NCBI GenBank assembly: GCA_035528795.1
Contig: DATKXY010000274.1
Location: 958-64,957, forward strand
DNA from: an archaeon
GTDB taxonomy: Bacteria; Gemmatimonadota; Glassbacteria; GWA2-58-10
DNA: 64,000 nucleotides
Reading direction: 5' to 3'
Position 1 is the stretch's first letter. Each line of letters opens with the position of its first letter. Below are positions 7,569-48,927 of the stretch, in pieces. The notes below the pieces were generated by a model. That model did no database searches. It was given only the letters and a program-made list of their open reading frames with translations, and was not told the DNA's origin. Made by a program: the position numbers and the translations under genes.

Positions 7569-7723
7569 TTTTTCAATCGCCCGGTGACGGCTGACAGCTC
7601 GTGATTCAGTTATTTGGCAAGATATCAGGCAGGCCTTGAGTGCTTATGGATTCTACAACTAACTTCTCTGATTTTGCGTATCTTGCAGAATACAATGCCA
7701 CGCAGTGCGAAAGGGGAGGACAA

Positions 7724-9277: not shown

Positions 9278-9352
9278 GCGCTGTGTTCTCTCTTCTGGAT
9301 TCAGTATTACTCAGTAATTGCCAATTTATCACTCTTAGGCCAGAGCTCCAGC

Positions 9353-9826: not shown

Positions 9827-9829
9827 GAC

Positions 9830-11101: not shown

Positions 11102-11120
11102 GTTTTCCAGCGGAGGAGTT

Positions 11121-12770: not shown

Positions 12771-12777
12771 TGAAGGT

Positions 12778-13869: not shown

Positions 13870-13910
13870 ATCAGACCGGATAAGTCATTTGTTGGAGGTT
13901 TTATATCATC

Positions 13911-27956: not shown

Positions 27957-29336
27957 TTAATGCTTTAACCTAACAATTACGCAGCGCTGCAGCGATTTAT
28001 CCCTTGCGGGCTTGCCCGGTTCGACAGGAAACTCTCCGCCGGCCAGCAGCTCCAGGCGACCCTCAGCAACTCCCTCGCTCACCAGATAATCCCGGACAGC
28101 CCGGGCCCTTCTTTCGGAAAGTCTGAGATTGGACTCCAAGGAACCGAGATTGTCTGTGTAGCCTATCAGCTCAAGCTCCACTTTGGGAGCTAATTTCATG
28201 AGCTGCGCAATCCGGACCATGTCGCCAAAGAACCGGGCCCCGACCTGAGCCCGATTACTCGGGAATAAAACTTCCAGATAAAACTCTTGCGGGGTCACGC
28301 GGGAGCAGCCTTTTTCATCCACCGGGAGATTGGGCGGAGAGTCAGGGCACTTGTCAATACCGTCGGGAACTCCGTCACTGTCCGAATCAACCGTCCTGCC
28401 GCTTGCATCGACCACCGCGCCTTTTGGAGTGTTCGGTTCAATGTCTAGTTGGTCTATTATACCGTCGCCGTCTTTATCAGCGGGAGGCACAGGTTTTTCT
28501 ACCGCTTTCTTTTCCACCGGGCAGCCCTGTTCATCTACCCGGGTGCCGGCCGGGGTATCCGGGCAGCGGTCCAGGTAATCCGGCACCCCATCCTGGTCTT
28601 TATCGATCGGGCAGCCGTTAGAGTAAACCTCGACTCCAAGCGGTGTACCTGGACACTGGTCTTTTTCATCCGGGATCCCGTCGCTGTCGGAGTCCACCAC
28701 CTTCTTCTCTACTCTGCCGAAAAGGATCGTAATTCCGGCGCCCACCTCCAGGTTGTGGTTCTTACGGTCGCCGCGCAAATCGCCGTCAATAAAATCGCGG
28801 TCCAGGTAATGGTCATAGGCTTCGAAACGCAAGCCCAGATGCCTGTTAACGAAGCATTCAAAGCCTGCACCGAAAACAAGCAGCTTACGTTTTTCATTTT
28901 TTTCTACAGAGACCGGCTCCCCATTGATATCTCTGATCGGGGAATCGAGCTGCATTTCGGCCCGCCCGGTAGAGACTGAAAAAAACGGGACTACGGGGCC
29001 GAGCGGAAGAGTGATGCGGGCTCCGACACCGTATGCATCATAGCGCGCAGATTGTTTTAATTTTCCAGGCGTATCGTCCGGGCTGATCTCCGATGGTCCG
29101 CGCATATAGAAACCTTCAATCCCTAAAACAGGGCAGAAATCGAGGCCTCCTCTTACTCCCCACAGCGGTCCGTCATCCAGACGGTTGGCGACGTAATAAT
29201 CCATCCAGTGGCCCAGCACAGGGCTGACATGCAAGGTGCCTGCGCGGTGGTTGCCCGCAGCCGCAGGCTGAACCCAGACAAAAAATACAGCCAGGACCAA
29301 AAGCCGGAATAAAATCTGACGAAATAACTGCATCAT
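27957..29336 (-). CDS. Paralogous OmpA-family/TSP3-repeat outer-membrane protein (tandem duplicate of 26516..27925)
   Basis: Same architecture and about 55-60% identity by eye (GTLHVSPVLGHWMDY..., DSDSDGIPDEKDQCPGTP, LSERRARAVRDYL). Confidence 0.75.
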   Translation of the reverse strand: MMQLFRQILFRLLVLAVFFVWVQPAAAGNHRAGTLHVSPVLGHWMDYYVANRLDDGPLWGVRGGLDFCPVLGIEGFYMRGPSEISPDDTPGKLKQSARYDAYGVGARITLPLGPVVPFFSVSTGRAEMQLDSPIRDINGEPVSVEKNEKRKLLVFGAGFECFVNRHLGLRFEAYDHYLDRDFIDGDLRGDRKNHNLEVGAGITILFGRVEKKVVDSDSDGIPDEKDQCPGTPLGVEVYSNGCPIDKDQDGVPDYLDRCPDTPAGTRVDEQGCPVEKKAVEKPVPPADKDGDGIIDQLDIEPNTPKGAVVDASGRTVDSDSDGVPDGIDKCPDSPPNLPVDEKGCSRVTPQEFYLEVLFPSNRAQVGARFFGDMVRIAQLMKLAPKVELELIGYTDNLGSLESNLRLSERRARAVRDYLVSEGVAEGRLELLAGGEFPVEPGKPARDKSLQRCVIVRLKH

Positions 29337-30621: not shown

Positions 30622-32220
30622 TCAGCTCTCTTTCTCCAGACTTTCCCCATCTAAGGATTTGGACTCCAGATTCAAGGAAGTGGGCACTATCTTACCTGTC
30701 TGGCGGTGGAGATAACCTGGTATTTTCTCGTGGCTTGCCGGGGTAACCTCTTCATCGTACCCATTTTTAGCAGCGATTGCCGCCCCGATCAGCATTATCC
30801 CACCCCCGACAAAAATCGACTCTCCATATCCGCCGATAGTCAAATAGTAGAGCACACCGACCATAATGGCCAGGACCAATACCAGGGGCAAAGCAAAAAT
30901 CATTTTTTTAAATGCATTGGTCATACGGATATTCCCGGACAAATTATCGAAATAATAATTAATGACCTGATTTGCAGCTCTCTGGGATGAATCGAAATAA
31001 AAAAAATTTCCAAGACAGGTAAGAATAAAAAATTCCTGTTCCATCTTGGAGGTGTACTTGCCGTATAAATAATGCTCTTCTTTGTCCAGGCTTTTGATTA
31101 CCGCCACAACATAGCCTCCAGACAGCCGGTAACACTGTCCCTCTTTTACTGGTGATTGAAGATTGTAGAGCACCTCGGAGCGCAGAAAAAACTTGCCTTT
31201 CTTGGTCTGCTTTGCCTGACTGAAAAAGCTGTTACTGATAGTCCGCCGCGCATGAGACATATCTGAGCCTGCGACAGCCGGGCAGACAAAATCATATTGC
31301 AAGGCCACTTCATGAGCGCCTATCACCGCTTTAGAGCGAATATAGTCTTTGAGGCTCGAGACACCATTTTCCTCTATCTCCGCCACAATGATTTCGATAT
31401 ACAACTCCAGCATGACTTTCCTGAGACGGCTGAATTCACAGGGGTATTCGCTGAACATTTCGAACAACTGATCGCATTTTGCAGCAGCTTCACCTTTAAA
31501 TGTATTCTCCAGGGTGAGATTTTCCTTAATATCCATAATCTTCTTGGAGGCTTCCGCCATTTTATAATCTAGGTAGTTCTTGCTCACCAGGTTTTCATTA
31601 AAAACAGCAGGCAATCCCACCTCGCTAATTATCGCGTTAATGCTCAAATCGCTCTCTGGAACTCCTTTGAGCACGCGGTAGCGGGAATTAAAGAATTTGT
31701 GGAGGCCTTTATCCCAGATGTAATCGTACAACCGCATGAGCTCGAGCTCCTGGATCAGCTCGATCAACCGCTCGTTGGACTGATTGCCGAAAATCATAAA
31801 ATAGAGCTTTTTCAGCTCCTGATTCTCAAGCTCCCGGGCACCAAACAAATTGACCAGGCTTTTCCCCTCCGCCCTGGGAGAAAGCATTAGCTGGAGCGTG
31901 GCGATCTCACAACTTTTCGGCATCTGGTCAAGCTGGAAAACCCCGGCCGCTTTTCTGTCAAGAAATTTATCGAGCAGCGTTAAACTTATACCATGCCTTA
32001 AAGAAATAGCTGACATGCCGCCGTAATTTCTGGCCAATATCTCCTCTATTATCTGGGCGAAATATTCAACTTCCTCGGCCCCCTCGACCAATGTGGGCAG
32101 ACGGCTTAGCTTGATCTGATCCCTGATGTAATTTTTATTGATCATCCAGGTACCAGTTTTTGCAACGGAACCTGCAGGAGAAAAATGCTCCGACCCGATT
32201 TCCATTTTATTTTCGGACAT
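30622..32220 (-). CDS. Hypothetical 532-aa protein with two C-terminal TM helices and a possible N-terminal HTH. Low-GC gene.
   Basis: No family recognised. MSAISLRHGISLTLLDKFL resembles an XRE-type helix-turn-helix. The C-terminus MIFALPLVLVLAIMVGVLYYL...IMLIGAAIAA contains TM helices. Codon usage is AT-rich. Confidence 0.45.
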   Translation of the reverse strand: MSENKMEIGSEHFSPAGSVAKTGTWMINKNYIRDQIKLSRLPTLVEGAEEVEYFAQIIEEILARNYGGMSAISLRHGISLTLLDKFLDRKAAGVFQLDQMPKSCEIATLQLMLSPRAEGKSLVNLFGARELENQELKKLYFMIFGNQSNERLIELIQELELMRLYDYIWDKGLHKFFNSRYRVLKGVPESDLSINAIISEVGLPAVFNENLVSKNYLDYKMAEASKKIMDIKENLTLENTFKGEAAAKCDQLFEMFSEYPCEFSRLRKVMLELYIEIIVAEIEENGVSSLKDYIRSKAVIGAHEVALQYDFVCPAVAGSDMSHARRTISNSFFSQAKQTKKGKFFLRSEVLYNLQSPVKEGQCYRLSGGYVVAVIKSLDKEEHYLYGKYTSKMEQEFFILTCLGNFFYFDSSQRAANQVINYYFDNLSGNIRMTNAFKKMIFALPLVLVLAIMVGVLYYLTIGGYGESIFVGGGIMLIGAAIAAKNGYDEEVTPASHEKIPGYLHRQTGKIVPTSLNLESKSLDGESLEKES

Positions 32221-35650: not shown

Positions 35651-36796
35651 TCAGGCGACATTATCGGATTTGTCGAATTCCTCGATAAATTTCATGGTCT
35701 TGTCCAGTTTCTCGCGCAGTTTAATAGAAACCACCTGCATCTCTCCGACTTTCTGGCCGAGCACTCCGGAAAGATCAATAGCCAACTCTCTCGGCTCGCA
35801 CAAAGGATTGGGAAAACCGTTTTCATGGGCCAGGTTCTCGGCTTTGGCTACTATACAGGCCCCGAAAGCAGTTTCCCGGCCGAGCGCCTCATCGAAACCG
35901 AAAGTACCGCAATGGTGCAGGCCTACAAGCTCGCAAATCTCCCGGTGAATTTTCCACTGCTCGGCGAGCATCTTACCGGCAATCAAGTGGTTGAAACCAA
36001 ACGCCTCCTCCTCAAGCTGCATCGGGTTCTCCGGCCTGGGCTGGCCTTTCAGGCGCCCGAAAAGACCGGCGGCGGTTTCCTGATCGTAGTGGCTGTAAAG
36101 CACCCAGCCGATATCGTGCAAAAGCGCCGCTGTGGTGATAGCCCCCACGTTACGGGTATAGCGGAGAACCTCGCGCAAAATGTATTCGGCGCAAACCGAA
36201 ACCGCATGCGAATGTTTCCAGAACCCCAACAGGTCGAAATATTCGCTCTCTGCCTTGCTCTTGCTCAAGCCCGAGCGGATAACATGCTGAAAGATTATAT
36301 TTTTCACCTCATTGTAACCCAGATAGGTAATCGCCCGCTGAAGAGAATCTATATGATAGCGCAGGCCGAATGCCGCAGAGTTGACTGTCTTAAGAATTTT
36401 AGCGGCATAAAAAGGATTCGACACCACGAACATGGCAATTTCGCGGGGCTCCATATCATAGTTGATCTCAATCAGCGGGGTTTCGCCTAGATCCGGCAAA
36501 TCGCGCAGCACATGCTCCAGCCGCCAGACTGTCTCGACCTCGACCTGAGAGCGGGTCATCGGCCGCCAGCCTGCCGCTGAGGGCAGCTCGACAGGTTGAG
36601 CCTTGATCTCGGGAGAGATGTTCCTGGCCCCGGCAGGCCGGGAATCTCCCGGGGTCTCCTGCGGCGCCTGACTCTTCCGGTCATACCTGATGATACGCTG
36701 CTGAGGCGGTTTTTTTCTGCCGGAACGCAAGCGCAGCACAAGGTAGATAACAGAAAGCACCATAGCAAATAAAACGAAAAAATCCAATATTGTCAT
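35651..36796 (-). CDS. HDOD-domain signalling protein with an N-terminal TM anchor
   Basis: N-terminal TM helix (ILDFFVLFAMVLSVIYLVL), then HDOD-like FGLRYHIDSLQRAITYLG...LLHDIGWV...GLHHCG. Confidence 0.5.
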   Translation of the reverse strand: MTILDFFVLFAMVLSVIYLVLRLRSGRKKPPQQRIIRYDRKSQAPQETPGDSRPAGARNISPEIKAQPVELPSAAGWRPMTRSQVEVETVWRLEHVLRDLPDLGETPLIEINYDMEPREIAMFVVSNPFYAAKILKTVNSAAFGLRYHIDSLQRAITYLGYNEVKNIIFQHVIRSGLSKSKAESEYFDLLGFWKHSHAVSVCAEYILREVLRYTRNVGAITTAALLHDIGWVLYSHYDQETAAGLFGRLKGQPRPENPMQLEEEAFGFNHLIAGKMLAEQWKIHREICELVGLHHCGTFGFDEALGRETAFGACIVAKAENLAHENGFPNPLCEPRELAIDLSGVLGQKVGEMQVVSIKLREKLDKTMKFIEEFDKSDNVA

Positions 36797-37024: not shown

Positions 37025-40000
37025 TTGCTCCACTCCAAAATCATAGGCCGGCTTTTTATCACTTTAACTTTTCCCCTTTGCAGCCTGGCACTCTCCGCTG
37101 GAGCACAGAAAGAGGATTCACCACTCGATTCACTCCGAGTTGAGAACTACCAGCTCAAAGAACGCCTGAATTTTCTGGAGGCGCGCAGGGAAGCTTTCCG
37201 CTGGGGCCGTTTCACTGAGGGCGCAGTGCTTCGCTCGGGATCGGTCATGCATTCGGAGCTCACACCTGAGGGAAGGCTGGCCTTTGCCACAGACAGGCAG
37301 GGAGTTATCTTTTTCGATGGGACTGTTTTCGAGATTGTAAACAGCCGCTTCTCCGGGCTCCAGGATGATTTTGTCACCTCACTGGCCCCCCTTGACGGAA
37401 ACCGGGCCTACCTGGCTACAGGCTCCGGCCTTGTTTTTTACGACCAGGGAACCGTGACCAGATGTGAAAATATCCCCGCTGAACTGGAAACAGCACCGGT
37501 AAGCTGCCTGGCGGCTCAAGGAGAAAAAGATCTCTGGGTCGGCACGCAGGGCATGGGGCTTTGGCATCTCTCAGGGGACAGGTGGGAAAACTTCCAAGCA
37601 GATACGGATTCCACGGGCCTGAGTAATAACGATATCAACTCTCTGGTTGTGGAACCGAACACGGAAACGGTTTGGGTCGGCACGGCAGGCGGAGGCGTTT
37701 ACCGCCTGGGTCCCCAAGGCTGGCAGAGATTCGAGGAGCCCCTTGGACCTGGAAGCAGTGAGGTGTATTGTCTGACCCTGGATGCCGACGGTCTGATTTG
37801 GATCGGCACGGTCAGTGCCGGCGCAGGTTTCTGGGATGGTATCGCCTGGCGCAAAGCCCCCCTCCCTTTGGAGGAAAACGAAGGGGTGGTCAATATCGCC
37901 GTGCTCTCTGATGGAGACCTGTTTTTCGGCTCCACCGCCGGCTCTTTTATCTACGACCGGGCAGCCGGACTCTGGCAGAGGCTCCCGGTTCCGGAAGAGC
38001 TGGCCCCCTATCCGATAATTTCAGCCTGCGAAGCCTGCGACCACCTCTGGCTCTCCCCCTCCGGCCAGGGCCTCTACCTCTATGACCGGGGCGTGATCGA
38101 ACGCTACAGCCAGGAACAAGGTCTGCCTTCAAACATAGTCTACCATATCGCCCAGGCGGAAGACAACCGCATCTGGTGCGCCACATGGAACGGGGTCGGT
38201 ATTTTCGACGGGCGAAGGTGGAAAAGAATGGGACGCGGGGATGGTCTGCCCAGCGACCTTGTCAATTTCGTTCTTTTCGGCAAGGAGGACAAGGCCTGTT
38301 TTGGTACGCACAGTGGCGTGGCCATTCTTTCCGCGGGACAGTGGACGGTTTATGACCGGGATAACGGCCTGACGAGCAACACTATCAACCACCTCTCGCT
38401 GGACAGCCGAAACAGGCTCTGGATCAGTACAGAGGGCGGAGGTCTGGGTGTTCTGGAGGGCGATTCGCTGAAAATATTCAGCGCCAGCGACGGGCTGCCC
38501 AGCAATCAGGTGCAGGCAGCGGCAAATGAGCCGAATGGCACTGTGTGGGTGGCAACCAAAAGGGGGCTGGCCTGTATCGAGCAGGGCCGGGTATTCCCGG
38601 TTGCCGAGGATCAAAGCTCGCCCGGATCAAGGCCCGGCCCATATCATTTCACTGCGCTGGAGGTCACCGCGGACGGTTCGCTGTGGGCCGCCACATACGG
38701 CCAGGGAGTATGGCGTAAAAATGCGCAAGACCAGTGGCGCCAGTTTACTGTAGATAACGGACTGAACTCTAATGAAGTCTATGCAATTGCCAGCAGCCGG
38801 GATGGACGCCTGTTTTTCGGCACAACGATGGGTTTAAGCCTTTATGACGGAAAGTACTGGAGGTCATACGGACCTGCCGACGGCCTTATCTCAGGCGCGG
38901 TCAAAAGTATCACCCCGGCAACTGACGGCGCGCTCTGGCTGGCTTCCGAGGACCAGGGAATTGTCCGTTTCGACCTGACTCGCTTCCAGCCCCCGGAAAC
39001 TTACATCCGCACACCGGAGGGGCTGCTTGTATGCCAGAATGTAAAAAACCGGCTCGTGCAGCTTGTGGCTGCGCAAGACAAAAATAGCGCTCCAGCGCAA
39101 GCCGACACCGCCGGGGGCGTTTTTTATCTTGAAAACCAGTATTATTTCGCCTTACCGGGACCGGCTGTTGTGGATACATTGAGCGCAAGCCGGCTCGAAC
39201 TCTCCGCTTTGGCCATGACACCCTGGTGGCCTGAAACAGCCAAGCAATTCCGTTACAGCTATAAGCTCGACAACAATCCCTGGACTGATTTCAGCTACCA
39301 GGGCACGATCGGCTTCCATGGGCTCGAGCGCGGGATGCACGTGATCAATGTCCGGGCCAAGGGCCCTCACCTGCGGGTTGATCCCACGGCAGCCATTTAC
39401 AGATTCTATGTGGATATACCCACGCTCTGGAGCGACTGGCGCACTTATGCTCTGGCGCTGATCCTCCTTTCCGGGATTTTTGCCGTTATCTTCCGCAAAC
39501 AGCTGACCTGGTACCTCGGCAAACTCCGCCATAGGCATTTCAGGCCTCTCACCCCGAATCCATTCAACCCCAATGTACCGGTAAGAGAAAAAGAGCGCTT
39601 TTTCGGCCGGGAAGAGACACTCAAGGCCTTGAGCGAATCTTTCACCTCGGGACATGTTTCGCTTATTATCCACGGTGAGGAAAAGATCGGCGTGACAAGT
39701 CTCCTGACACAGGCTGCCGATCATGTTAAACAACAGGGAGCCAAAGCTCTGTACCTCGACCTGGCAAGGCTCTACTTCCAGGATGTGAAAGCCTTTATCA
39801 AACACCTGAGCCTTCTGTTGGCCAATGAAACTCCCCCAGCCCCTGATCTGGACAAACAGGCCGATGTATCGCTGGAGGATTTCCGGGAGCTTGTCGGCCA
39901 GGAACAAAGCCCAGTACTCTTCTTTTTTGATAACGCCGAGCTTTTCGGCCGCCTGATTCTCCGCGATGAAAAATCGGGTTCCGAGCTCGCTTCCTGTTTT

Positions 40001-41893
40001 CGTGAGCTGCTGCTCAGCGACAACGGTGCCAGCTTCGTTTTCGGGCTCAAGGCCCTGAACCTTTTCCGGGAACAGGTGGAAGTGCTTTTCGATGTGAGCC
40101 GGATTATCCGTGTCGGCGAGGTCACCCGGGAAGCCGCAAAAGCAATTATCACCAAACCTCTCGCCGGCCGGGCGCTGTTGCATGATGACGCCCTGGACCT
40201 GCTGGTAAGTCTGGCCGGAGGCCATCCTTACCTGCTTTACTGCCTGGGCCAGGAACTGGTGGAACAAGTGAACCGGGAGCGCACAAATCTCTGCACTGAG
40301 GGTCTGGTGTCCCGGACCGTGGAGAGCCTGCTCAAGAACCCACCTGTGCTGCTTGTTGACTGCTGGGATGAGTTGACCAAAAGGGAGAAGCTACTCCTTG
40401 CAGCGGCGGTTTCGGTGTCTTTTTCCAGCGAGAAGCCGGTGATCTTGAGCCTGTCGGACATTGTCGGCATCCTGAGCTCGCACCGGATATCCTTGCTCGA
40501 GGAGGAGCTGGCCAAGGCCTCCGCAGATCTTTCCCATCGAGAATTACTGCTCACCGAGGACGGTGGCGCCAGGATCCGGGTGGAGGATTCACTCTTGAAC
40601 CGCTGGATCTGCGCCAATCAGAATATAGACCTTATCAATGCCCTCGAGGAGTACGATCTGGGCGAGGCCATGCGCAAACTAGGCGATGAACTCGCCCACT
40701 CCTTCAAGATGGATGAGCTGGCCAGGCGAATACTCTCCTTCCTGGACGGGCTGCTGCATTTCGAATGGGGAGCACTCCTGGCCGCGCAGAGCAAGAAGGG
40801 GGAGGGAGAGCAAATACCGCTGACGCAACTTGGAACTGCCGGTTCCGGAGCCCACGGGATAAAACTTCCCGAGAGCCTCTCCGCCAGGATGCTTGAGAGA
40901 TTGAGCCTTAAAGGCGGCGCACTGACTGTCGAGGGACAGGCCCCAGGCGAGGACTCTACTGACCAACCATGGCCATTCCAGCCGGGCACCCTGCTTGTAC
41001 CCATGATGACAAGAGGTACATTTGCGGGTCTCCTCGCTCTCAGCAGAAGGAGGGACGGCGAGCGCTACAGCCGAAGGGACAGGCTGTTTGTGGAAACGAT
41101 CGCCGAGCAGGTCGCTGTGTCTATGGAAAATGTCCGGCTCTACGAAGAAGAAACCGAAAAAGAAAGATTGAAACAGGAACTGGAAACGGCCCGCAAGATG
41201 CAGATGGCCATCCTGCCGGAAAGAAAACCCCAACTCCCTGACCTGGATATTTATGCCTATCTCAACCCGGCAACCGAGGTGGGAGGCGATTACTTCGATT
41301 ATATCCAGGTCGATGGCTCGAAGCTACTTTTTATTATCGCTGATGTAAGCGGCCACGGAATAAGCGCCAGCACCCTGGTATATATGGCAAAAAGCTGTAT
41401 TTTCAACCAGATCAAAACCGACTACAGCGTGGAAAAAGTGATGGCGGCGATGAACGACATGGTCTATGGGGTGCTCAAAGAACGATTGCTGATGACTTTC
41501 TGCTATGCGATATTCGATTTGGAAAAACGCACTCTCAGCTATTCAATCGCCGGACACCCGTTCCCATATCATTACCATGCAAGAGAGGGAAAGCTCAAAG
41601 AGCTGGAGCTTTCCGCCTATCCCCTGGGTGTCACCCCCAAGGCCAAATATAAATCAGTTGAAATCAGTTATCAGCCCGGTGACCTTTTCGCTTTTTACTC
41701 GGATGGAATTATCGAGGGCTCGAATCCCGGCGGCGAGCAATTCGGTTTTCTGCGCTTCGAGCAAATTATTCTCGATAACAAGGATCTTGACGCCGAGGGA
41801 ATAAACCGGAACATGATCGATAGTTTTCATGTTTTCTCAAAAGGTAATCCACAGGACGATGATGTAACTCTGGTAACGATCAAGGCCCAATGA
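37025..41893 (+). CDS. Giant (1622-aa) sensor serine phosphatase. Domain order: signal peptide, periplasmic two-component-regulator beta-propeller repeats plus Y_Y_Y-like region, TM helix, degenerate P-loop NTPase (AAA-like), GAF-like domain, PP2C/SpoIIE phosphatase.
   Basis: Signal peptide LFITLTFPLCSLALSA. Reg_prop-like repeats include GLSNNDINSLVVEPNTETVWVGTAGGGVYRL and LPSNQVQAAANEPNGTVWVAT. TM segment WRTYALALILLSGIFAVIF. NTPase-like FFGREETLKAL...SLIIHGEEKIGVTSLL. The PP2C domain has MQMAILP...GGDYFDY...LFIIADVSGHGISAS...FAFYSDGIIE and C-terminal DDDVTLV. Confidence 0.75.
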   Translation: MLHSKIIGRLFITLTFPLCSLALSAGAQKEDSPLDSLRVENYQLKERLNFLEARREAFRWGRFTEGAVLRSGSVMHSELTPEGRLAFATDRQGVIFFDGTVFEIVNSRFSGLQDDFVTSLAPLDGNRAYLATGSGLVFYDQGTVTRCENIPAELETAPVSCLAAQGEKDLWVGTQGMGLWHLSGDRWENFQADTDSTGLSNNDINSLVVEPNTETVWVGTAGGGVYRLGPQGWQRFEEPLGPGSSEVYCLTLDADGLIWIGTVSAGAGFWDGIAWRKAPLPLEENEGVVNIAVLSDGDLFFGSTAGSFIYDRAAGLWQRLPVPEELAPYPIISACEACDHLWLSPSGQGLYLYDRGVIERYSQEQGLPSNIVYHIAQAEDNRIWCATWNGVGIFDGRRWKRMGRGDGLPSDLVNFVLFGKEDKACFGTHSGVAILSAGQWTVYDRDNGLTSNTINHLSLDSRNRLWISTEGGGLGVLEGDSLKIFSASDGLPSNQVQAAANEPNGTVWVATKRGLACIEQGRVFPVAEDQSSPGSRPGPYHFTALEVTADGSLWAATYGQGVWRKNAQDQWRQFTVDNGLNSNEVYAIASSRDGRLFFGTTMGLSLYDGKYWRSYGPADGLISGAVKSITPATDGALWLASEDQGIVRFDLTRFQPPETYIRTPEGLLVCQNVKNRLVQLVAAQDKNSAPAQADTAGGVFYLENQYYFALPGPAVVDTLSASRLELSALAMTPWWPETAKQFRYSYKLDNNPWTDFSYQGTIGFHGLERGMHVINVRAKGPHLRVDPTAAIYRFYVDIPTLWSDWRTYALALILLSGIFAVIFRKQLTWYLGKLRHRHFRPLTPNPFNPNVPVREKERFFGREETLKALSESFTSGHVSLIIHGEEKIGVTSLLTQAADHVKQQGAKALYLDLARLYFQDVKAFIKHLSLLLANETPPAPDLDKQADVSLEDFRELVGQEQSPVLFFFDNAELFGRLILRDEKSGSELASCFRELLLSDNGASFVFGLKALNLFREQVEVLFDVSRIIRVGEVTREAAKAIITKPLAGRALLHDDALDLLVSLAGGHPYLLYCLGQELVEQVNRERTNLCTEGLVSRTVESLLKNPPVLLVDCWDELTKREKLLLAAAVSVSFSSEKPVILSLSDIVGILSSHRISLLEEELAKASADLSHRELLLTEDGGARIRVEDSLLNRWICANQNIDLINALEEYDLGEAMRKLGDELAHSFKMDELARRILSFLDGLLHFEWGALLAAQSKKGEGEQIPLTQLGTAGSGAHGIKLPESLSARMLERLSLKGGALTVEGQAPGEDSTDQPWPFQPGTLLVPMMTRGTFAGLLALSRRRDGERYSRRDRLFVETIAEQVAVSMENVRLYEEETEKERLKQELETARKMQMAILPERKPQLPDLDIYAYLNPATEVGGDYFDYIQVDGSKLLFIIADVSGHGISASTLVYMAKSCIFNQIKTDYSVEKVMAAMNDMVYGVLKERLLMTFCYAIFDLEKRTLSYSIAGHPFPYHYHAREGKLKELELSAYPLGVTPKAKYKSVEISYQPGDLFAFYSDGIIEGSNPGGEQFGFLRFEQIILDNKDLDAEGINRNMIDSFHVFSKGNPQDDDVTLVTIKAQ

Positions 41894-44043
41894 AAAAAAA
41901 TCAGCCCATAAAAAAAGTCAGTGAAGCCGCGGTCGAAAAAACGGTCGGCAGGCTTGTCGAATTGTCCCGAATCAGCAGTCTCTTTCTGGAAGCCGAAAAA
42001 GTCGAGGCGGCGCTTGCCGAAGCGCTCGGGATAATCCGGCGCCTGCTCTGCCATGAGAGGGTATATATCTATCTATACGAAGAGGATGACAGGCTGCTTC
42101 TGCCCTTTGACTCAAGCCAGAACACCGCCTGCCCACCGCTCGAGCTGCCCCAAAGCCTGCTGCGACCGCCTGAAGACCGGCGGAAAGGGCCTAAGCTCCA
42201 GTTGAATGACCTTAATAAATTGATTTACTTGAATGGGAAAAACCATTCGGAGCCATGGAGTCTTTTCTTTCAATTAAACAGAAATGCTCTCAAAAAACTC
42301 GAGATCCGGCTGATCGTCCCCCTGGGTACAGGCCGCGATTTCCTGGGCGCGATCCTCCTCGGCGAAAAAAACCGGGATCTCCGGTTGAGCCGGGATCAGC
42401 TTGAGCTGCTGGAGGCTGCGCACATGGAACTCTCTCTCGGTCTGGCCCGCTTCAAGCTTCTGAAATCGATCAAGCGCTCGCATTACGAGACAAAACTCAA
42501 GATTCTCGAACTGGAAACCCTGCAGGACATCGGAATAGCTATTGCAAGTATTCTCGACCTTGATCAACTGACAAAGGAGCTTCTTCTGCGAGCGGTCTCA
42601 GTGCTCAATGTCAACCGGGCAATGGTACTGGTTAAACGGCCGGGCGAAAGTATCCTCAGCCGTATCGATAAGGAACCGGAGCCTATGTATGTGGCTGAAA
42701 CCTTTGGTTTGGAAAGGGCCGAGACAGATAAATTATGCTTTTTCGGCGGCTGCGATGCGGTTCTGGAGAATCTGAGGAAAAGAATCCCCACGATTCTTAA
42801 CGATTCCAAGGCTATTCCCCAGGCTCTTGACTGCGGAAAACTGCTGGTGATGCCGATTCAGTTCAAGGGTGAGCTGCTGGGATGCATTATGGTTGGCGAC
42901 AAGGAAGGCCGTTATGGGCAGTTTCCTGATTTCGACCAGGGTGACCTGAGCCTGCTCGGCGCCATGGCCAACCAGGCGGGAGCCGCTATCTCAAATGCCA
43001 AGCTGTACAGTAATGTGCTGGAAATGAAACAATATAACGAGAACATTCTCACCAGTATCGCCAGCGGGGTGATCACCACTGATAACGAAGGCAGAGTGGT
43101 GAGCTATAACGATTCGGCGGCGAAGATTTTCTCAATCCCCGCTTCTCAGGCGATAGGGTTGAAAATTGAGGAGCTTTTCTCAGCGGTAGATCAAGTCACT
43201 CTGGCCGAGAAACTGGCTGCCACTTTAAAAGAGGGAAGCACTTACCAGGAGACAAACCTGCGAGCTCGCACCCCTGCCGGGTCAGAAATTGTATTTAATA
43301 TCAGCCTGACCCAACTTTATGCAGAGGACGAGAAAAAAAGCACCAGAGGCGTGGTGGTCTCAGTGGAAAACATCTCCGAGGGGGCCAGAGTCAAAGAAAT
43401 GCTCAAGCGCTATGTCAGCGCGAATATAGTGGATCTGGCGCTGGAGAAAGAACACGAGCTGGCCCTGGGCGGCAAATTATGCGAGGTTACCATTCTTTTT
43501 ACCGATATACGGGGATTCACCGAAATGAGCGAGGAGAAAACACCCGGGGAAGTAGTCGACCTTCTCAACAGCTATTTTGACTTGATGATTGATGTGGTTT
43601 TTCGTTACAATGGTACAGTGGATAAAATTGTGGGCGATGAACTAATGGTCCTTTTCGGCGCTCCTTTCGCTTTCAAGGATGACACGCACCGTGCTGTGGG
43701 CTGTGCTCTGGCCATGCTCGAAGCGCTCGGAGAGTTCAACAAGCGCCGTCTGCCGGAAGGGCATGCTCCCCTGGCAATCGGTATCGGTCTGAACCGGGGC
43801 TCTGTGATCTCAGGCAATATCGGCTCGACAAAGCATATGGATTACACGGTCATCGGGGATGCCGTGAACCTGGCCAGCCGCCTTGTAGGCCATGCTGCTA
43901 AAGGTCAGATTCTGATCTCACGCAGCGTGTACGAAAACCTGAACAACTCATTCCTCTGCCGCAGGATGGAAAACATCCGGGTCAAGGGCAAAAAGGACCC
44001 GATAGAAGTTTTCGAGGTTCTGCACAAAAACAGACAAAAATAA
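41890..44043 (+). CDS. GAF/PAS-containing class III adenylate cyclase
   Basis: The C-terminal CHD has ILFTDIRGFTEMSE (metal Asp), KIVGDELMVLFGAP (substrate Lys), YTVIGDAVNLASRL (Asp gives adenine specificity), plus IGIGLNRGSVISGNIGS. Upstream are GAF-like and PAS-like regions. The ATGA start overlaps the stop of the preceding gene. Confidence 0.8.
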   Translation: MKKNQPIKKVSEAAVEKTVGRLVELSRISSLFLEAEKVEAALAEALGIIRRLLCHERVYIYLYEEDDRLLLPFDSSQNTACPPLELPQSLLRPPEDRRKGPKLQLNDLNKLIYLNGKNHSEPWSLFFQLNRNALKKLEIRLIVPLGTGRDFLGAILLGEKNRDLRLSRDQLELLEAAHMELSLGLARFKLLKSIKRSHYETKLKILELETLQDIGIAIASILDLDQLTKELLLRAVSVLNVNRAMVLVKRPGESILSRIDKEPEPMYVAETFGLERAETDKLCFFGGCDAVLENLRKRIPTILNDSKAIPQALDCGKLLVMPIQFKGELLGCIMVGDKEGRYGQFPDFDQGDLSLLGAMANQAGAAISNAKLYSNVLEMKQYNENILTSIASGVITTDNEGRVVSYNDSAAKIFSIPASQAIGLKIEELFSAVDQVTLAEKLAATLKEGSTYQETNLRARTPAGSEIVFNISLTQLYAEDEKKSTRGVVVSVENISEGARVKEMLKRYVSANIVDLALEKEHELALGGKLCEVTILFTDIRGFTEMSEEKTPGEVVDLLNSYFDLMIDVVFRYNGTVDKIVGDELMVLFGAPFAFKDDTHRAVGCALAMLEALGEFNKRRLPEGHAPLAIGIGLNRGSVISGNIGSTKHMDYTVIGDAVNLASRLVGHAAKGQILISRSVYENLNNSFLCRRMENIRVKGKKDPIEVFEVLHKNRQK

Positions 44044-44048
44044 TTGAC

Positions 44049-44486
44049 ATGGGCAGCGAAAAATTAAAATTCGACAGTTGCGTGACTATGACTGTGCCGA
44101 TGGAGGCCAACCAGGAGCTCAAAGTGGCCGAGCGGGCGGAAGAGCTGGCTGTCCGGCTGGGCTTCGAGCGGGATCCGATCGATGAGATAAAGCTCGCCCT
44201 GATTGAAGCCGTAATAAACGCCATCGAGCATGGCAGCAGCCCTGAGCGCAAGGTATTTATTACCTTCGGACTCAACCGGAAGCCTCGCCGGATGGCAATT
44301 GTCATCTCGGATTCCGGCTCAGGCTTTGATCCCGGCGCTGTCGAAATACCGGACATCAAGAAAAAGATGCAAAAAGGCACGCGCAAAAGGGGCTGGGGAC
44401 TGAAAATCATGCGCAGTCTGATGGATGAAGTACGGGTTGAATCTTCCCGGGGTGGGACGCAAATTACCTTGATCAAAAACGGTTAA
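44049..44486 (+). CDS. Anti-sigma regulatory factor-type Ser/Thr kinase (RsbW/SpoIIAB-like HATPase_c)
   Basis: N-box EAVINAIEHG, G1 VISDSGSGFD, G2 RGWGLKIM. 145 aa. It starts 6 nt after the cyclase stop. Confidence 0.75.
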   Translation: MGSEKLKFDSCVTMTVPMEANQELKVAERAEELAVRLGFERDPIDEIKLALIEAVINAIEHGSSPERKVFITFGLNRKPRRMAIVISDSGSGFDPGAVEIPDIKKKMQKGTRKRGWGLKIMRSLMDEVRVESSRGGTQITLIKNG

Positions 44487-44628
44487 AAGTAATTTGACAA
44501 TTAAGCCAGTTCTCTCTACATTAATTCTAGATCTCTGTTAACCTGTTTGCCAAATAGCTTGCTAAAAGAAAATTATGCATCTTGAAACCCAGTTCCATTG
44601 TTCATCCAGATTACCGGAGTAACCACTT

Positions 44629-44979
44629 ATGGCAGAAAATTTTCAAGTAACCATTCGCCGGGAGATTAACTACGCTATCCTTTATACTGATGGCTATATT
44701 AACAATACCGGCGGCGAAAAGATCGCCCAGGAATGTTACAAACTGCTGGATGAAGGGATAAAGCGTTTCATCCTCAATCTGGCCAAGTCACCGATTGTCA
44801 ATAGTGTAGGTATTGCCGTGCTGATTGAGCTCATTGAGAGGGTGCGGGAAGAGGGTGAAAAAGTGATTTTTTGCAATTGCACCCCGGTGATCTCAAAAAC
44901 CTTTAAAATTATGGGATTGACCCAATATGCCGAACTATACGATGATGAAAGGGAAGCTATTGGTAACATTTCATCATGA
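44629..44979 (+). CDS. STAS-domain anti-sigma-factor antagonist (RsbV/SpoIIAA-like)
   Basis: 116 aa. The KRFILNLAKSPIVNSVGIAVLIEL beta-alpha pattern places a Ser (S59, nt 44803-44805) where SpoIIAA-type proteins are phosphorylated. Confidence 0.7.
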   Translation: MAENFQVTIRREINYAILYTDGYINNTGGEKIAQECYKLLDEGIKRFILNLAKSPIVNSVGIAVLIELIERVREEGEKVIFCNCTPVISKTFKIMGLTQYAELYDDEREAIGNISS

Positions 44980-44998: not shown

Positions 44999-46156
44999 AT
45001 GAAAAGGTTTGTCCTCTTATTGGCGATGTTTTTCCTTATGGGTGCGGTCGCCCCTTTGCAAGCCGTATTCGATAAAGCGCAGCTCAACGATAAAAGGTAT
45101 ATCAACATCGTCTTTATCCTCGACTGCTCGGCAAGCATGAACAAGATAATCGGCCCGGTGCGCAAGATCGACATCGCTAAAAAAACCGTGGAATCGATTA
45201 TCAAAAACCTGGCAGTAGAAAGCCATGATGCCGCTTCAATGAAAACGGCTTTGAGAGTTTTCGGTTCCAAGTTCTACAAATGGAAACAGAACTGCGATGA
45301 CACCAGCCTTGAAGTGGCGCTGGATGATATCGAAAAAACCCTGAATCCCATTCTGATCACGGTTAAAAATGTCACGGCCAAAGGCCAGAGTTCGCTTTCT
45401 CTGACCATGGATGCGCTTAAAGGGGATTTCCCGGAAGAGAATGACCAGAGCAATTTTATTGTGGTAGTTTCCGACGGCGATGAATCCTGCGGAGGAAGCC
45501 CTTGCGCTGCTGTTAAACAACTCGCCAGCACAAGCCAGGGGGTTTCTGTAAACACTCTCGGTGTGGAGACCGACCCTGCCGGTTACGAGAATCTCAATTG
45601 TATGGCCAATGCCGGCAACGGCTTATATTTCGACAGCAAGGATGTAGAGGATTTTATTCTTTTCCTCAAAGATAATAACAAAATTATACAGGAAAACCGT
45701 CGGCTGTTCGCTCTGCAAGCCTCAAAGAGCGCGAATGATACTACGCGAATCAAGAAGCGCGATGTGACCGCCGATCTGAAAGAATATGTTCTTGAAGAAG
45801 CTTCTCCGCTCTATCCGGACCGGGATGAACGTTTTCCTGCCATTGATACCTTGAAACCCGAGGACAAACTGTTTTTGATCTCTTCCAGAGGACTCTGGCT
45901 TAATGTTTTCGCACCGGCGAAGCAGATCCAGGGCTGGATCCTGGCCAAAACCGGAGGATCGGAGTACTCGGTAACCGTAACTGATGACAAAACACCTCTT
46001 TATGTGGAGAAGAGCCCATCGAGCCAGGTAGCCGTTTATCTGAACGCGGGCGACCAGCTTACTGTCTTAAAAAAAGAAGGCGCCTGGTATAATGTTTTCA
46101 ACTCGAAACTTAATCTCAAGGGATGGGTTATCGCATTCAATGTAGCGGAGAATTGA
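44999..46156 (+). CDS. Secreted von Willebrand factor A (VWA) domain protein with a C-terminal SH3b-like domain
   Basis: Signal peptide MKRFVLLLAMFFLMGAVAPLQA. VWA fold with IVFILDCSASM (MIDAS DxSxS) and VVVSDGDESCGG. C-terminal SH3b-like GAWYNVFNSKLNLKGWV. A start at 44999 is preferred over the in-frame ATG at 44927, which overlaps the STAS gene. Confidence 0.6.
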   Translation: MKRFVLLLAMFFLMGAVAPLQAVFDKAQLNDKRYINIVFILDCSASMNKIIGPVRKIDIAKKTVESIIKNLAVESHDAASMKTALRVFGSKFYKWKQNCDDTSLEVALDDIEKTLNPILITVKNVTAKGQSSLSLTMDALKGDFPEENDQSNFIVVVSDGDESCGGSPCAAVKQLASTSQGVSVNTLGVETDPAGYENLNCMANAGNGLYFDSKDVEDFILFLKDNNKIIQENRRLFALQASKSANDTTRIKKRDVTADLKEYVLEEASPLYPDRDERFPAIDTLKPEDKLFLISSRGLWLNVFAPAKQIQGWILAKTGGSEYSVTVTDDKTPLYVEKSPSSQVAVYLNAGDQLTVLKKEGAWYNVFNSKLNLKGWVIAFNVAEN

Positions 46157-46234: not shown

Positions 46235-47239
46235 ATGCCTGGAGTTCTGAAAAAGTTCAAAAAAGGCGATGTGATTATCGCCGAGGGTACCACAGGCAAA
46301 TTCCTTTATATCATTGAATCTGGCAAAGTCGAGGTGACCAAGGAAAGCCCTACCGGTCCTTTGCAACTTGCCACTTTGGGCCCCAATGAAGTTTTCGGCG
46401 AAATGAGCCTGATTGACGACCGTTTCAGCCGCCGCACCGCCACAGTCCGAGCCATTGAGGACAGCCAGGTAATAGTCCTCGACAGACGGGGGTTTGACAG
46501 TTACATCAATCAGGCCTCCCCCGGTATCTTCAACCTGATCAAAAGACTCTCCAAACGTCTGCGGGAAACAAACGATATTATCACCCGCGCTGGTGGAGAT
46601 GTGCATAACCTTCCTAAAGCCCTCAAAACAAAACCGGTCACCGGGGATAAAGAGCAAAAACTCACTTTCGACCAGATGGCTGAATCAGTAGAAGCCGCAG
46701 TTGACCTCAACCTCATGCCGAAAAAATTCAAAAAAGACCAATTGCTGATCAGGGAGAACGCCGATGCAATGAGCCTTTTCCTGATCAGGGACGGAGCAGT
46801 CAAGATTTTCAAGAAACTGGGCGACCAGGAAGTCGAGATCGACACTCTCTGCGCCAGTGAGGTGTTTGGCGAGATCAGCATGTTCGGCGACGGGAAGCGC
46901 TTTGTGACTGCAAAAGCCATTGAAGACGGGGAAGCGGTCGTTTTCAGCAAGAAACAAATGGACGAAATGCTTCGCAAAGCCCCGCTCGAGCTTTTTTTGA
47001 TTATGGAATGCATGACCCAGAAGTTGAAAAGGATTACCTTGCGTTTTCTGGAACAGATGGATGAAAAACAAAAATCAGAGAGTGTGTGCCGGAAACTGGA
47101 AGCGGAGCTGAACGACTTGAAAAAAGAGAATTTGACGCTTCAGGAAAACCTCAAGAAAATGCGCGAAAATCAAACTGCCAGACCTGCTTTCACCCCTGTC
47201 GATCCCGCTTCGCCACCCCAGGATAATGAGATCACCTGA
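46235..47239 (+). CDS. Tandem cyclic-nucleotide-binding (cNMP) domain protein with a C-terminal coiled-coil. No recognisable HTH.
   Basis: Two cNMP motifs, FGEMSLIDDRFSRRTATVRA and FGEISMFGDGKRFVTAKA (the conserved Gly-Glu...Arg-(T/S)-A phosphate-binding cassette). The C-terminal KLEAELNDLKKENLTLQENLKKM is coiled-coil. Confidence 0.75.
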   Translation: MPGVLKKFKKGDVIIAEGTTGKFLYIIESGKVEVTKESPTGPLQLATLGPNEVFGEMSLIDDRFSRRTATVRAIEDSQVIVLDRRGFDSYINQASPGIFNLIKRLSKRLRETNDIITRAGGDVHNLPKALKTKPVTGDKEQKLTFDQMAESVEAAVDLNLMPKKFKKDQLLIRENADAMSLFLIRDGAVKIFKKLGDQEVEIDTLCASEVFGEISMFGDGKRFVTAKAIEDGEAVVFSKKQMDEMLRKAPLELFLIMECMTQKLKRITLRFLEQMDEKQKSESVCRKLEAELNDLKKENLTLQENLKKMRENQTARPAFTPVDPASPPQDNEIT

Positions 47240-47439: not shown

Positions 47440-47660
47440 GTTCCACGGATCCAGTTTATGCGGCGGGCGGAGAATGTCTTGAGCGCCCGCACTATTTCGG
47501 GCAATCCAGGAGTAGGGGCGGGTTTTAAACCCGCCCTCCCGGCTGTGAATAATCGTGACCTTTCAGGCGAATCGAACCACGGTGATAGTTCGTTAAGGGC
47601 GGGTTTGAAACCCGCCCCTACCAGTAAAAATGTCTGGATTGAATAATACGTCATAATATT
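47440..47660. repeat. Structured repeat element, copy D. It is a tandem duplication of a module made of a perfect GC palindrome plus TGAATAAT.
   Basis: GGGCGGGTTTTAAACCCGCCC (47516-47536, a perfect 21-nt palindrome) and GGGCGGGTTTGAAACCCGCCC (47597-47617), 81 bp apart. Each is followed within 10-23 nt by TGAATAAT (47546-47553 and 47640-47647). The core matches the TGTGAATAAT motif of copies A and B. Confidence 0.55.
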
Positions 47661-47967: not shown

Positions 47968-48927
47968 GTGGAAAAAACTCTGCTCAAGCCCCGAAGACTC
48001 AAACAGGGTGACACCGTGGGCCTGGCAGCCCCGGCAAGCCCCCTGCTCACTTACCGCGATATCTCGCGGGCCGAGCATGTGCTCGCCGGCATGGGGTTCA
48101 AGGTGCGCCGCGGCCGGTTCATTCGCCGCAGGACAGGCTTTCTCGCCGGCAGCGACCGTGAGCGCGCCGCTGATCTCAACTCCATGTTCGCAGACCCCTC
48201 GGTGCAAGGTATTTTCACCCTCCGGGGCGGCTACGGAAGCGGCCGCCTGCTCGGGCTTCTCGATTGGGACACTATCCAGGCCAACCCCAAGGTCATTGTC
48301 GGCCACAGCGATCTGACCGCGCTGCTTATCTCTATTTACCAGCGGACAGGCATGGTAACTTTCTGGGGCCCGCTGGCAGGCTACGATCTCGGCCGCTCAC
48401 CCTCCCCTTTTAAACTGAAATGGCTCAAAGCAGTGACTTGCGAAAGCCAGTCCGGCATGAGGCTGCCCAAAGGCCCGGGAGCCGCGGGCCGCCGCTGGCG
48501 CGTGCTGGGCGGGAGCGGGGTGGCCGAGGGCCGCCTGGTCGGAGGGAACCTGAGCCTTCTGGCAAGCCTGATGGGCACGCCGTATGAAATCGACACCAGG
48601 GGCAAGCTCCTTTTTTTCGAAGATGTGGATGAAGACCCATACAGGATCGACCGGATGCTCAATCAGCTCGATCTGGCGGATAAATTGCGCGCGGCTGCGG
48701 GGATTCTGGTGGGACGGTTCATGAACTGCGAGTCAAGCGGAAGGATGCGGCGCTCGTTCGGTTTGCGCCATGTGCTGAAAGAAAGATTGGGCGGCCTCGG
48801 CATCCCGGTGGTCTATGGAGCTCCTATCGGTCACGAGCCTGAAAAAATAACCCTTCCCCTCGGAGTAACGGCCCGCCTGTCGGCCAAGGACAGGAGCCTC
48901 ACCCTGCTCGAGCCGGCGGTCTTGTGA
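47968..48927 (+). CDS. ldcA: LD-carboxypeptidase (muramoyltetrapeptide carboxypeptidase, peptidase S66)
   Basis: GDTVGLAAPASP...GYGSGRLL...KVIVGHSDLTALL (nucleophilic Ser in GHSD) ... C-terminal AP/IGHE catalytic region. GTG start. Confidence 0.75.
   Translation: MEKTLLKPRRLKQGDTVGLAAPASPLLTYRDISRAEHVLAGMGFKVRRGRFIRRRTGFLAGSDRERAADLNSMFADPSVQGIFTLRGGYGSGRLLGLLDWDTIQANPKVIVGHSDLTALLISIYQRTGMVTFWGPLAGYDLGRSPSPFKLKWLKAVTCESQSGMRLPKGPGAAGRRWRVLGGSGVAEGRLVGGNLSLLASLMGTPYEIDTRGKLLFFEDVDEDPYRIDRMLNQLDLADKLRAAAGILVGRFMNCESSGRMRRSFGLRHVLKERLGGLGIPVVYGAPIGHEPEKITLPLGVTARLSAKDRSLTLLEPAVL

Follow-up and report, generated by a model that had tools for sequence, protein, structure and literature searches.

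A propeller-fronted PP2C sensor with a degenerate AAA+/STAND-like module in a candidate cyclic AMP-linked partner switch of Candidatus Glassbacteria

Introduction

What does a serine/threonine phosphatase control when its input is a large beta-propeller module outside the cytoplasm, and how could a signal from that module reach the catalytic domain? The question is raised by a sensor phosphatase gene at 37025..41893 (+ strand) of a 64,000-nucleotide stretch of metagenomic DNA (contig DATKXY010000274.1 of assembly GCA_035528795.1), hereafter called the window. Its 1622-aa product ends in a PP2C domain of the kind found in partner switches. These switches are best known for controlling sigma factors, and few enzyme outputs have been described (such as the diguanylate cyclase SiaD and an Anabaena glycosyltransferase). 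In the SiaABCD system of Pseudomonas aeruginosa, the PP2C phosphatase SiaA and the kinase SiaB balance phosphorylation of the STAS-like protein SiaC, which activates SiaD (PMC7647112, PMC8457831).

Our analysis points, with moderate confidence, to a SiaABCD-like partner switch with cyclic AMP (cAMP) as its output, fed by the propeller-PP2C sensor through a degenerate relay module. More tentatively, we propose that this is an undescribed kind of partner switch, in which the kinase would hold a class III adenylate cyclase, the propeller sensor would set STAS phosphorylation via its PP2C domain and a pseudo-ATPase (a dead STAND/ORC-like module) would serve as the transmembrane relay.

An intact sensor phosphatase gene

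The ORF list and its translation give a single uninterrupted open reading frame (ORF) with a TTG start, 5 nt downstream of a Shine-Dalgarno-like GAGAGG. In order, the protein comprises a signal peptide, two seven-bladed Reg_prop propellers, a Y_Y_Y-like Ig domain, a transmembrane (TM) helix, an AAA+/STAND-like module, a GAF domain, a linker helix and a PP2C (SpoIIE) domain, and it scores above the curated Pfam cut-offs for Reg_prop, GAF and SpoIIE/PP2C. An initial annotation, made from the sequence alone, had the domain order right, including one TM helix and an NTPase-like fold between it and the GAF domain.

The same annotation raised the possibility of an assembly chimera at 39400-39600. 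The sensor ORF is not a chimera, because identical ORFs occur in independent assemblies and because orthologues are collinear through the suspected junction. The identical 1622-aa protein (P0001) is present on three JGI contigs, and the identical downstream cyclase on five contigs, which stem from ENA, Logan, JGI and NCBI; on a 65-kb ENA contig, the gene upstream of this cyclase is called as the same 1622-aa product. The suggested search for homologues with the same domain order gave, among the matches listed, 16 full-length orthologues of 1533-1660 aa and 43-66% identity, all collinear through about residue 800 (39400-39600). Base composition shows no break across the gene, the junction included.

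With the full protein as query, the best 120 clusters consisted of the 16 family members, one frameshifted copy (P0017) and 103 others. Family counts of 17 given below refer to 17 aligned rows, with P0017 lacking the PP2C domain. In P0017 (1193 aa, from a JGI contig of 279 kb), the frame breaks inside the AAA+-like module and the C-terminal 90 or so residues are out of frame; the copy is either a pseudogene or the product of a sequencing error.

All 11 loci recovered from species-representative genomes are in metagenome-assembled genomes (MAGs) labelled Candidatus Glassbacteria or 'Gemmatimonadales'. The collinear orthologues, about 20 in total, likewise stem from MAGs of Candidatus Glassbacteria only. 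As part of the overall reading, and at the same moderate confidence, we take the sensor phosphatase to be a type-I membrane protein specific to Candidatus Glassbacteria.

NCBI names the cyclase identical to that at 41890-44043 of the window (P0269) as coming from an '[archaeon]' MAG. The source bin has probably been misassigned taxonomically: the locus, together with its orthologues and gene content (OmpA, nuo, partner switch), is bacterial and falls within Candidatus Glassbacteria.

A cyclase, a kinase and a STAS protein encoded with the phosphatase

Six genes lie on the + strand in the order PP2C sensor, cyclase, RsbW-like kinase, STAS, VWA-SH3 and tandem cyclic nucleotide monophosphate (cNMP)-binding protein. 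The cyclase gene (41890..44043, +) overlaps the sensor stop codon by 4 nt, and the two genes appear to be translationally coupled. By Pfam, its product carries a weak GAF, a GAF, a PAS and a cyclase domain (Guanylate_cyc 116 bits, above the cut-off), an architecture that presumably recalls Anabaena CyaB1. The motifs vdKivGD and dYTvIGdaVNLASR hold the same Lys/Thr pair as the proven adenylate cyclase CyaB of P. aeruginosa (3r5g, matched at 134 bits), whereas the guanylate cyclase Cya2 has Glu/Gly. Judged by these specificity residues, the enzyme would be a class IIIb adenylate cyclase.

Only 5 nt after the cyclase stop codon begins a gene for a 145-aa RsbW/SpoIIAB-like serine kinase (44049..44486, +; HATPase_c_2 E 2e-23) with intact N-box, DxGxG and GxGL motifs. 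It is followed by the gene for a single-domain STAS protein of 116 aa (44629..44979, +; Pfam STAS E 4e-13), in which the conserved Ser59, within VNSVG, is the likely site of phosphorylation by the kinase. Because genes for a STAS protein and an RsbW-like kinase adjoin that of the PP2C protein, the partner-switch reading in the initial annotation was apt; the cAMP-centred operon itself had been overlooked.

Two further genes may extend the system on its input and output sides. The first (44999..46156, +) encodes a VWA + SH3_3 protein, as assigned by Pfam, of 385 aa counted from Met25, a start that other gene callers also use; its metal-ion-dependent adhesion site (MIDAS) reads DCSAS, with DxSxS intact. 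Since it has its own signal peptide, this protein would be periplasmic like the propellers and could be a co-receptor. The second (46235..47239, +) encodes the tandem cNMP-binding protein (Pfam cNMP_binding in two stretches, E 1e-41), which ends in a coiled coil; Pfam and inspection of the sequence revealed no DNA-binding or enzymatic domain in it.

The six-gene order is kept in orthologous loci down to 44% identity. PP2C/cyclase and cyclase/kinase junctions are overlapping or at most 5 nt long, and the cyclase/kinase junction is so in every locus examined. A consensus scan for promoters and terminators, uninformative overall, gave promoter-like sites ahead of the sensor and STAS genes but no convincing internal terminator. 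The site in the 143-nt kinase-STAS gap (44486-44629) is TTGACA, 17 nt and TACATT at 44494-44522, a match to the consensus only; given its position, the six genes may form two transcription units.

Cyclase and kinase are also found joined in a single protein. P0287 (871 aa) contains the cyclase and the RsbW-like kinase in one frame, separated by a 22-residue linker (L019 5623-8238, also L020 113-2728). It occurs in a Glassbacteria MAG carrying the sensor orthologue P0009 and is assembled in both the NCBI MAG and a Logan assembly. When the cyclase-kinase half of P0287 served as query, a second, divergent fusion emerged, P0332 (565 aa; L025 166-1863), with 43% identity, a different linker and the Lys/Thr pair kept. 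A STAS gene lies 10 nt downstream of it (L025 1874-2191) and no PP2C gene lies upstream. These in-frame fusions tie an RsbW-like kinase physically to an adenylate cyclase. They suggest that cyclase, kinase and STAS protein are one unit, to which the propeller-PP2C protein supplies the input in Glassbacteria. Contexts of two GAF-PAS cyclases outside Glassbacteria (P0306 and P0312) contain no partner-switch neighbours, so the cyclase contexts do not extend the association beyond this lineage.

Could the module instead be a conventional sigma switch? Here, PP2C would act on STAS so that the RsbW-like anti-sigma kinase is captured and an unlinked sigma factor released, with the cyclase and the cNMP-binding protein separate or modulatory and co-transcribed by chance. 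No other output of such modules is better known (reviewed in PMC12143880), and the kinase and the STAS protein have RsbW/SpoIIAB and anti-sigma-factor antagonists as their best NCBIfam matches. The whole flank is moreover syntenic in the lineage, so that adjacency is weak evidence. However, the kinase scores far below the NCBIfam cut-offs (60 vs 145 bits for RsbW, 57 vs 135 bits for SpoIIAB), and the match of the STAS protein to the anti-sigma-factor-antagonist superfamily is likewise below cut-off. Among the ORFs scanned, in the operon and in the rest of the 64-kb window, there was no sigma-70-family domain. The two in-frame fusions and the tight cyclase/kinase junction further argue against this explanation, which we consider unlikely while ranking it as the strongest competitor of a cAMP-linked switch.

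A degenerate AAA+/STAND-like module between membrane and output

The region between the TM helix and the GAF domain (39527..40729, +; aa 835-1235) consists of an N-terminal FRPxxPNPFxP...FxGRE arm, a nucleotide-binding-like domain, a helical lid with a GGxP motif and a winged helix. An AlphaFold model of this module (predicted local distance difference test, pLDDT, 81; predicted template modelling score, pTM, 0.75) has a five-stranded nucleotide-binding-like domain, the helical lid and the winged helix. Pfam matches are all sub-threshold (bits/cut-off: AAA_35 20.2/27, AAA_16 21/32.6, ATPase_2 18.7/33.2, nSTAND1 14.8/27.1). A profile of aa 830-1235, searched against 1.84 billion proteins, matched 8693 cluster representatives at E<=1e-3. 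At the level of sequence profiles, homology to AAA+/STAND-type NTPases is thus clear despite the low Pfam scores.

The catalytic motifs of the module have been lost. The Walker A remnant GEEKIGVTS (39674..39700, +), which in the model lies exactly between strand 1 and helix 1, has V890 at the P-loop Lys position. The Walker B remnant VLFFFDNAE (39914..39940, +) keeps D969, with N970 replacing the catalytic Glu. By contrast, the canonical motifs of the wider family are an NPYxxGxP...FFGRE arm, Walker A GxRRxGKTS and Walker B hhhhDE[FY][DE]. At the Walker A Lys position, all 17 family members carry a hydrophobic residue (V, L, I or M), and all 156 other representative domains carry Lys. At the second Walker B residue, 14 of the 17 family members have Asn and the other three Asp, Arg or Gly, so that Glu is absent throughout; 148 of 155 other representative domains have 'DE'. 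The sensor-1 position, read by eye from alignments and without statistics, is 'FGL' in the query family and 'G[TSR]' in canonical relatives.

A Lys or Arg three residues before the lost Lys was considered as a compensating 'shifted lysine'. We rejected this idea because canonical relatives (GxRRxGKTS) also carry Arg at that site.

Mean pairwise identity across the family is 0.41-0.49 in the module, 0.50 in the propellers and 0.39 in GAF. The module is conserved as well as the sensor domains and is therefore retained rather than decaying. Because the Walker A Lys and Walker B Glu are lost in every family member, nucleotide dependence is unlikely: we predict that the module neither binds nor hydrolyses NTP, and it is most likely a nucleotide-independent conformational or oligomerisation relay. 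The initial annotation had named an 'AAA-like NTPase' domain of about 400 aa and suggested nucleotide control of the phosphatase. Its fold and position hold, the NTPase motifs (Walker A GEEKIGVTS, Walker B FFFDN) do not, and nucleotide control becomes unlikely with the two residues missing in 17/17 members.

The module might still work if a nucleotide or another phosphorylated ligand, bound in a non-canonical way, gated PP2C by driving oligomerisation, as in true STAND proteins, an idea that takes up the earlier suggestion. The modelled fold is intact, constraint on the module is similar to that on other domains, and the former pocket keeps the P-loop glycines, the [ST]S pair and several arginines: G889, D969, E972, R993 and S1025-R1026 are invariant in the family and S892 is present in at least 90% of rows. 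A sister clade with the Walker B 'DNAE' of the query family also keeps the P-loop Lys. Set against this are the uniform loss of Lys and catalytic Glu, the retention of Lys in every other relative counted and the altered sensor-1 position, and we regard a working module as improbable.

This sister clade (P0125-P0129, P0131, P0132, P0156), whose members have 1900-2230 aa when complete, is arranged as propeller, Ig-like domain, TM helix, the same NTPase module, Ser/Thr kinase, GAF and HisKA-HATPase. Three further proteins (P0033, P0049, P0057) have a canonical, ATP-competent-type module behind the same propeller-Y_Y_Y-TM front end and finish after the winged helix. More broadly, the query family shares its fold and N-terminal arm motif with ATPase modules of the form NPYxxGxP...FFGRE...GxRRxGKTS...DE[FY][DE], which span the ATPase_2/AAA_16/AAA_35/nSTAND1 range and have Cdc6/ORC and PAB2304 (2qen) as solved examples. 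Canonical modules retain GK[TS] and DE, and many of them stop after the winged helix, whereas in the query family both motifs are degenerate and a GAF-PP2C unit is appended. Of the 150 top-ranking representatives of this module, none outside the query family has a PP2C domain as well. The truly unusual feature of the protein is therefore this degenerate AAA+/STAND-like relay between membrane and GAF-PP2C, which the initial annotation overlooked.

The GAF-PP2C output

The PP2C/SpoIIE domain (PF07228; 41315..41887, +; aa 1431-1621) scores 148.5 bits against a cut-off of 25 (E 2.8e-43). Its acidic motifs are GGD (1422), DVSGHG (1440), SDG (1560) and DDD (1612-1613). D1422 is invariant. Of the 17 rows, at least 90% have D1440, D1560 and D1612-1613, and it is the frameshifted P0017 that departs; we take these residues to be those of the PPM metal sites. 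Its closest relatives of solved structure are P. aeruginosa RssB, Mycobacterium tuberculosis Rv1364c and SiaA, the PP2C domain of SiaA (6k4e) matching at E 2.5e-12. From these motifs the output end looks active, and phosphatase activity on phospho-STAS is predicted.

Upstream of PP2C are the GAF domain (40712..41122, +; aa 1230-1366; Pfam 25.5 bits vs a 22.4 cut-off) and a linker helix of 34 residues (41123..41224, +; aa 1367-1400). The linker helix has the highest mean pairwise identity of the protein, 0.80, compared with 0.39-0.62 for the other domains. A coiled-coil linker activation model has been put forward as general for PPM phosphatases (PMC12143880). By analogy with those enzymes, the linker helix would set dimer-dependent PP2C activity.

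The GAF domain also permits a reverse wiring, in which the cyclase is the input and the cAMP that it makes binds the sensor GAF and controls PP2C. GAF stands directly before PP2C, the sensor and cyclase genes are seemingly coupled in translation, and among PDB entries the GAF region weakly matches a cyclic GMP-phosphodiesterase GAF (E 1.6e-4). However, inspecting both GAF regions by eye for the NKFDE-type cNMP-binding motif, we saw none, and the operon already encodes a tandem cNMP receptor. Reverse wiring also leaves the cyclase-kinase fusions unexplained, and we judge it very unlikely.

A Pycsar-like or STAND-type anti-phage system, or an assembly artefact behind the long ORF, deserves hardly any weight and is in effect already refuted. 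The PADLOC matches of the cyclase (to the Pycsar cyclase model PycC, E 6e-25) and of the cNMP-binding protein (to PycTIR, E 8e-20) cover generic cyclase and CNB (cyclic nucleotide-binding) domains only, with neither a TIR nor a membrane effector portion present, and no PADLOC model matches the sensor itself. The cyclase has the adenylate-type Lys/Thr pair, the cluster is chromosomal and syntenically fixed across the whole lineage, and an artefact is excluded by the identical ORFs in independent assemblies and the 16 collinear orthologues.

The periplasmic input and membrane topology

Over the whole protein, only two segments exceed our Kyte-Doolittle threshold for strong hydrophobicity (score >1.6). 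The first, aa 6-24, is the core of a signal peptide (37025..37105, +; aa 1-27; hydropathy 1.73) with a cleavage-like site, AGA|Q, at which the precursor is probably cut; the N-termini of orthologues are likewise hydrophobic. The second, aa 805-823 (WRTYALALILLSGIFAVIF; 39437..39493, +), is the single TM helix, has the highest hydropathy of the protein (1.86) and is followed by the strongly basic stretch RKQLTWYLGKLRHRHFR. Since there are only these two hydrophobic segments and the basic stretch follows the second, about 780 residues would lie outside the cytoplasm and about 800 inside, with one membrane pass, in agreement with the topology first proposed (signal peptide plus one TM helix near residue 800).

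The exported part begins with a conserved helix (37118..37195, +; aa 32-57; LxxENxxLxERLxxLEARRExFRW), around which N41, L44, L51, E56, R59 and W60 form conserved columns. It is followed by the two seven-bladed Reg_prop propellers (37244..38971, +; aa ~74-649; Pfam Reg_prop 111 bits vs a cut-off of 20.4, E 1.5e-33) and by a beta-sandwich with a variable insert (38996..39412, +; aa ~658-796). The AlphaFold model of the periplasmic part, built from 12 sequences, has an overall pLDDT of 80 and consists of the N-terminal helix (model residues 4-29, with pLDDT <50 in its C-terminal part from about residue 22), 14 four-stranded blades and the C-terminal beta-sandwich.

The family profile of this part matches solved Bacteroides hybrid two-component sensors, namely 4a2l (BT4663, E 1e-55), 3v9f (BT3049, E 2e-52) and 3ott (BT4673, E 1e-33), and more weakly PorZ. 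Foldseek aligned about 790 columns of the model to the same three structures at 17-19% identity, with E from 1e-34 to 1e-30, the best of these values bearing out, together with the 4a2l profile match, the kinship to hybrid two-component glycan sensors noted in the initial annotation. Profile and model thus both indicate that the periplasmic module is homologous to the sensor domains of these Bacteroides proteins. The likeness extends to the order of parts, two Reg_prop propellers and then an Ig-like domain between a signal/TM segment and a TM helix. Unlike the Bacteroides proteins, the Glassbacteria sensor gives no Pfam Y_Y_Y match, carries the extra conserved N-terminal helix and has a Ser/Thr phosphatase output in place of histidine kinase, receiver and AraC domains.

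Of the Reg_prop/Y_Y_Y module originally named, the propellers stand on the Pfam score and the 14 modelled blades, and the Y_Y_Y part is less sure. Pfam Y_Y_Y (PF07495) gave no match at E<=1, either to the whole protein or to the isolated segment. Alignment with hhalign to seven Pfam-verified Y_Y_Y segments gave a weak match (probability 36%, E 3.7e-4), though with 77 columns in register. The segment is all-beta in the model and lies inside the full-length Foldseek alignment. Because Pfam is negative and hhalign weak though in register, we use the label divergent Y_Y_Y-like Ig domain, for which profile and predicted fold give weak support.

Propeller-PP2C proteins at large

The initial annotation considered a propeller input on PP2C unusual. 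That view is contradicted by the matches listed, in which 43 of the 103 non-family clusters (among the best 120) already combine Reg_prop, mostly with Y_Y_Y, with SpoIIE; the propeller-PP2C fusion is therefore not itself the novelty. These 43 clusters have about 1000-1700 aa, most of them about 1000-1150 aa, and JGI names some 'serine phosphatase RsbU/ligand-binding sensor domain-containing protein'. They share the propeller input and PP2C output with the query family, but are without the AAA+/STAND-like module and usually without GAF. In the three contexts of such simple proteins that we inspected (P0058, P0084, P0019), there were no STAS, RsbW or cyclase neighbours. A literature search returned nothing relevant on Reg_prop with SpoIIE or on a propeller-RsbU architecture; the architecture is common but unstudied.

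Other features of the window

Past the cNMP-binding gene lies a 730-nt gap poor in ORFs, which contains, at 47512-47621, two copies of a perfect palindromic hairpin, GGGCGGGTTT[T/G]AAACCCGCCC, 81 nt apart. They gave 0 matches in 100 shuffles, have no other copy in the window and look like a repetitive extragenic palindromic (REP)-like element or a terminator pair. The next gene downstream (47968-48927) encodes an LD-carboxypeptidase (Peptidase_S66) homologue. Upstream of the sensor gene and divergent from it is an HDOD/HD-domain gene (35651-36796, -), which is kept in L003 and L004, with a FliG-like gene in its place in L001.

Further away, a respiratory complex I cluster (6216-14489, +) encodes NuoD, F, G, H and I homologues and includes, directly after nuoD, a 545-aa ORF (7640-9277) with no Pfam match. 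Tandem paralogues at 26516-27925 and 27957-29336 (-) combine an outer-membrane beta-barrel, thrombospondin type 3 repeats and an OmpA domain. A 532-aa ORF (30622-32220, -), again with no Pfam match, has conserved counterparts at the equivalent syntenic site in L003 (527 aa) and L004 (536 aa). No RNA genes came up in Rfam and tRNA scans that covered the whole window.

Discussion

Taken together, the anatomy of the sensor, its lost nucleotide motifs and the company of its gene lead us to propose the following mechanism for the cAMP-linked partner switch. An extracellular ligand would bind the periplasmic propellers, possibly together with the co-encoded VWA-SH3 protein, and thereby rearrange the TM helix and the pseudo-ATPase module. 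The change would pass via GAF and the linker helix and set the activity of PP2C, which would strip the phosphate that the RsbW-like kinase puts on Ser59 of the STAS protein. Unphosphorylated STAS would then capture the kinase, and the cyclase would be freed or otherwise altered. The alternative partner of the kinase would be the co-translated class IIIb adenylate cyclase and not a sigma factor, and the resulting cAMP level would be read by the tandem cNMP-binding protein. The ligand, the sign and direction of regulation, the phosphatase substrate, the interaction of kinase and cyclase and the downstream effect of cAMP are all steps that we infer.

Several considerations weigh against this proposal. 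The flanking genes (Dus, HhH-GPD, HDOD, LdcA, HEAT-REC) are conserved in order too, so that synteny inside a single lineage says little about functional linkage. All family sequences come from metagenomes, P0287 comes from one MAG lineage, and P0332 lies on a 2.2-kb contig with a coverage of 1.8. The fusions show association, not the direction of control, and the kinase could phosphorylate the cyclase or merely co-localise with it. A sigma factor may be encoded elsewhere in the genome. Many residues of the former nucleotide pocket are still invariant, so that it could bind a ligand in a non-canonical way. On the input side, Pfam does not place the Ig-like domain in Y_Y_Y, and a glycan is suggested as ligand only by homology at the low identity given above.

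Of the systems already described, SiaABCD is alike in encoding a membrane PP2C sensor, a switch kinase, a phosphorylatable small partner and a nucleotide cyclase in one operon. The two differ as follows: the Glassbacteria cyclase is of the class III adenylate type whereas SiaD is a GGDEF protein, the small partner is a canonical STAS protein (PF01740) and not of the SiaC type, and the Glassbacteria fusions join the cyclase to the kinase, not to STAS. Nor does the sensor qualify as a SiaA orthologue, scoring 45.4 bits against a cut-off of 700 in NCBIfam NF038263.

With RsbU/RsbP/SpoIIE-type PPM phosphatases, such as those of the Bacillus subtilis RsbU-RsbV-RsbW system and the GAF-containing RsbZ of Clostridioides difficile, the protein has in common a C-terminal SpoIIE PP2C domain with acidic motifs, GAF and a helical linker directly upstream of it, and a STAS protein and an RsbW-like kinase encoded nearby. 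It differs from them in that the sensor is membrane-anchored, with about 800 aa of periplasmic input and a degenerate module of about 400 aa before GAF. Its operon holds no sigma factor and has an adenylate cyclase between the phosphatase and kinase genes. Compared with class IIIb adenylate cyclases such as CyaB (3r5g), the enzyme has the same Lys/Thr pair and upstream GAF/PAS domains but is set apart by its partner-switch operon and, in two lineages, by fusion to the kinase.

A full-text literature search found no paper on a partner switch gating a class III adenylate cyclase. The term 'adenylate cyclase' does occur in an Anabaena partner-switch paper, where it refers to the two-hybrid assay.

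If a class III adenylate cyclase is gated in this way, cAMP would be added to the outputs of partner switches, and the sensing of extracellular glycans or of the envelope would be linked directly to cAMP through serine phosphorylation. The pseudo-ATPase relay, its ATP-competent relatives with the same sensor and the sister clade with kinase outputs form a comparative series on the non-hydrolytic roles of such modules. For Glassbacteria, a lineage known only from metagenomes, these results provide a testable signalling hypothesis.

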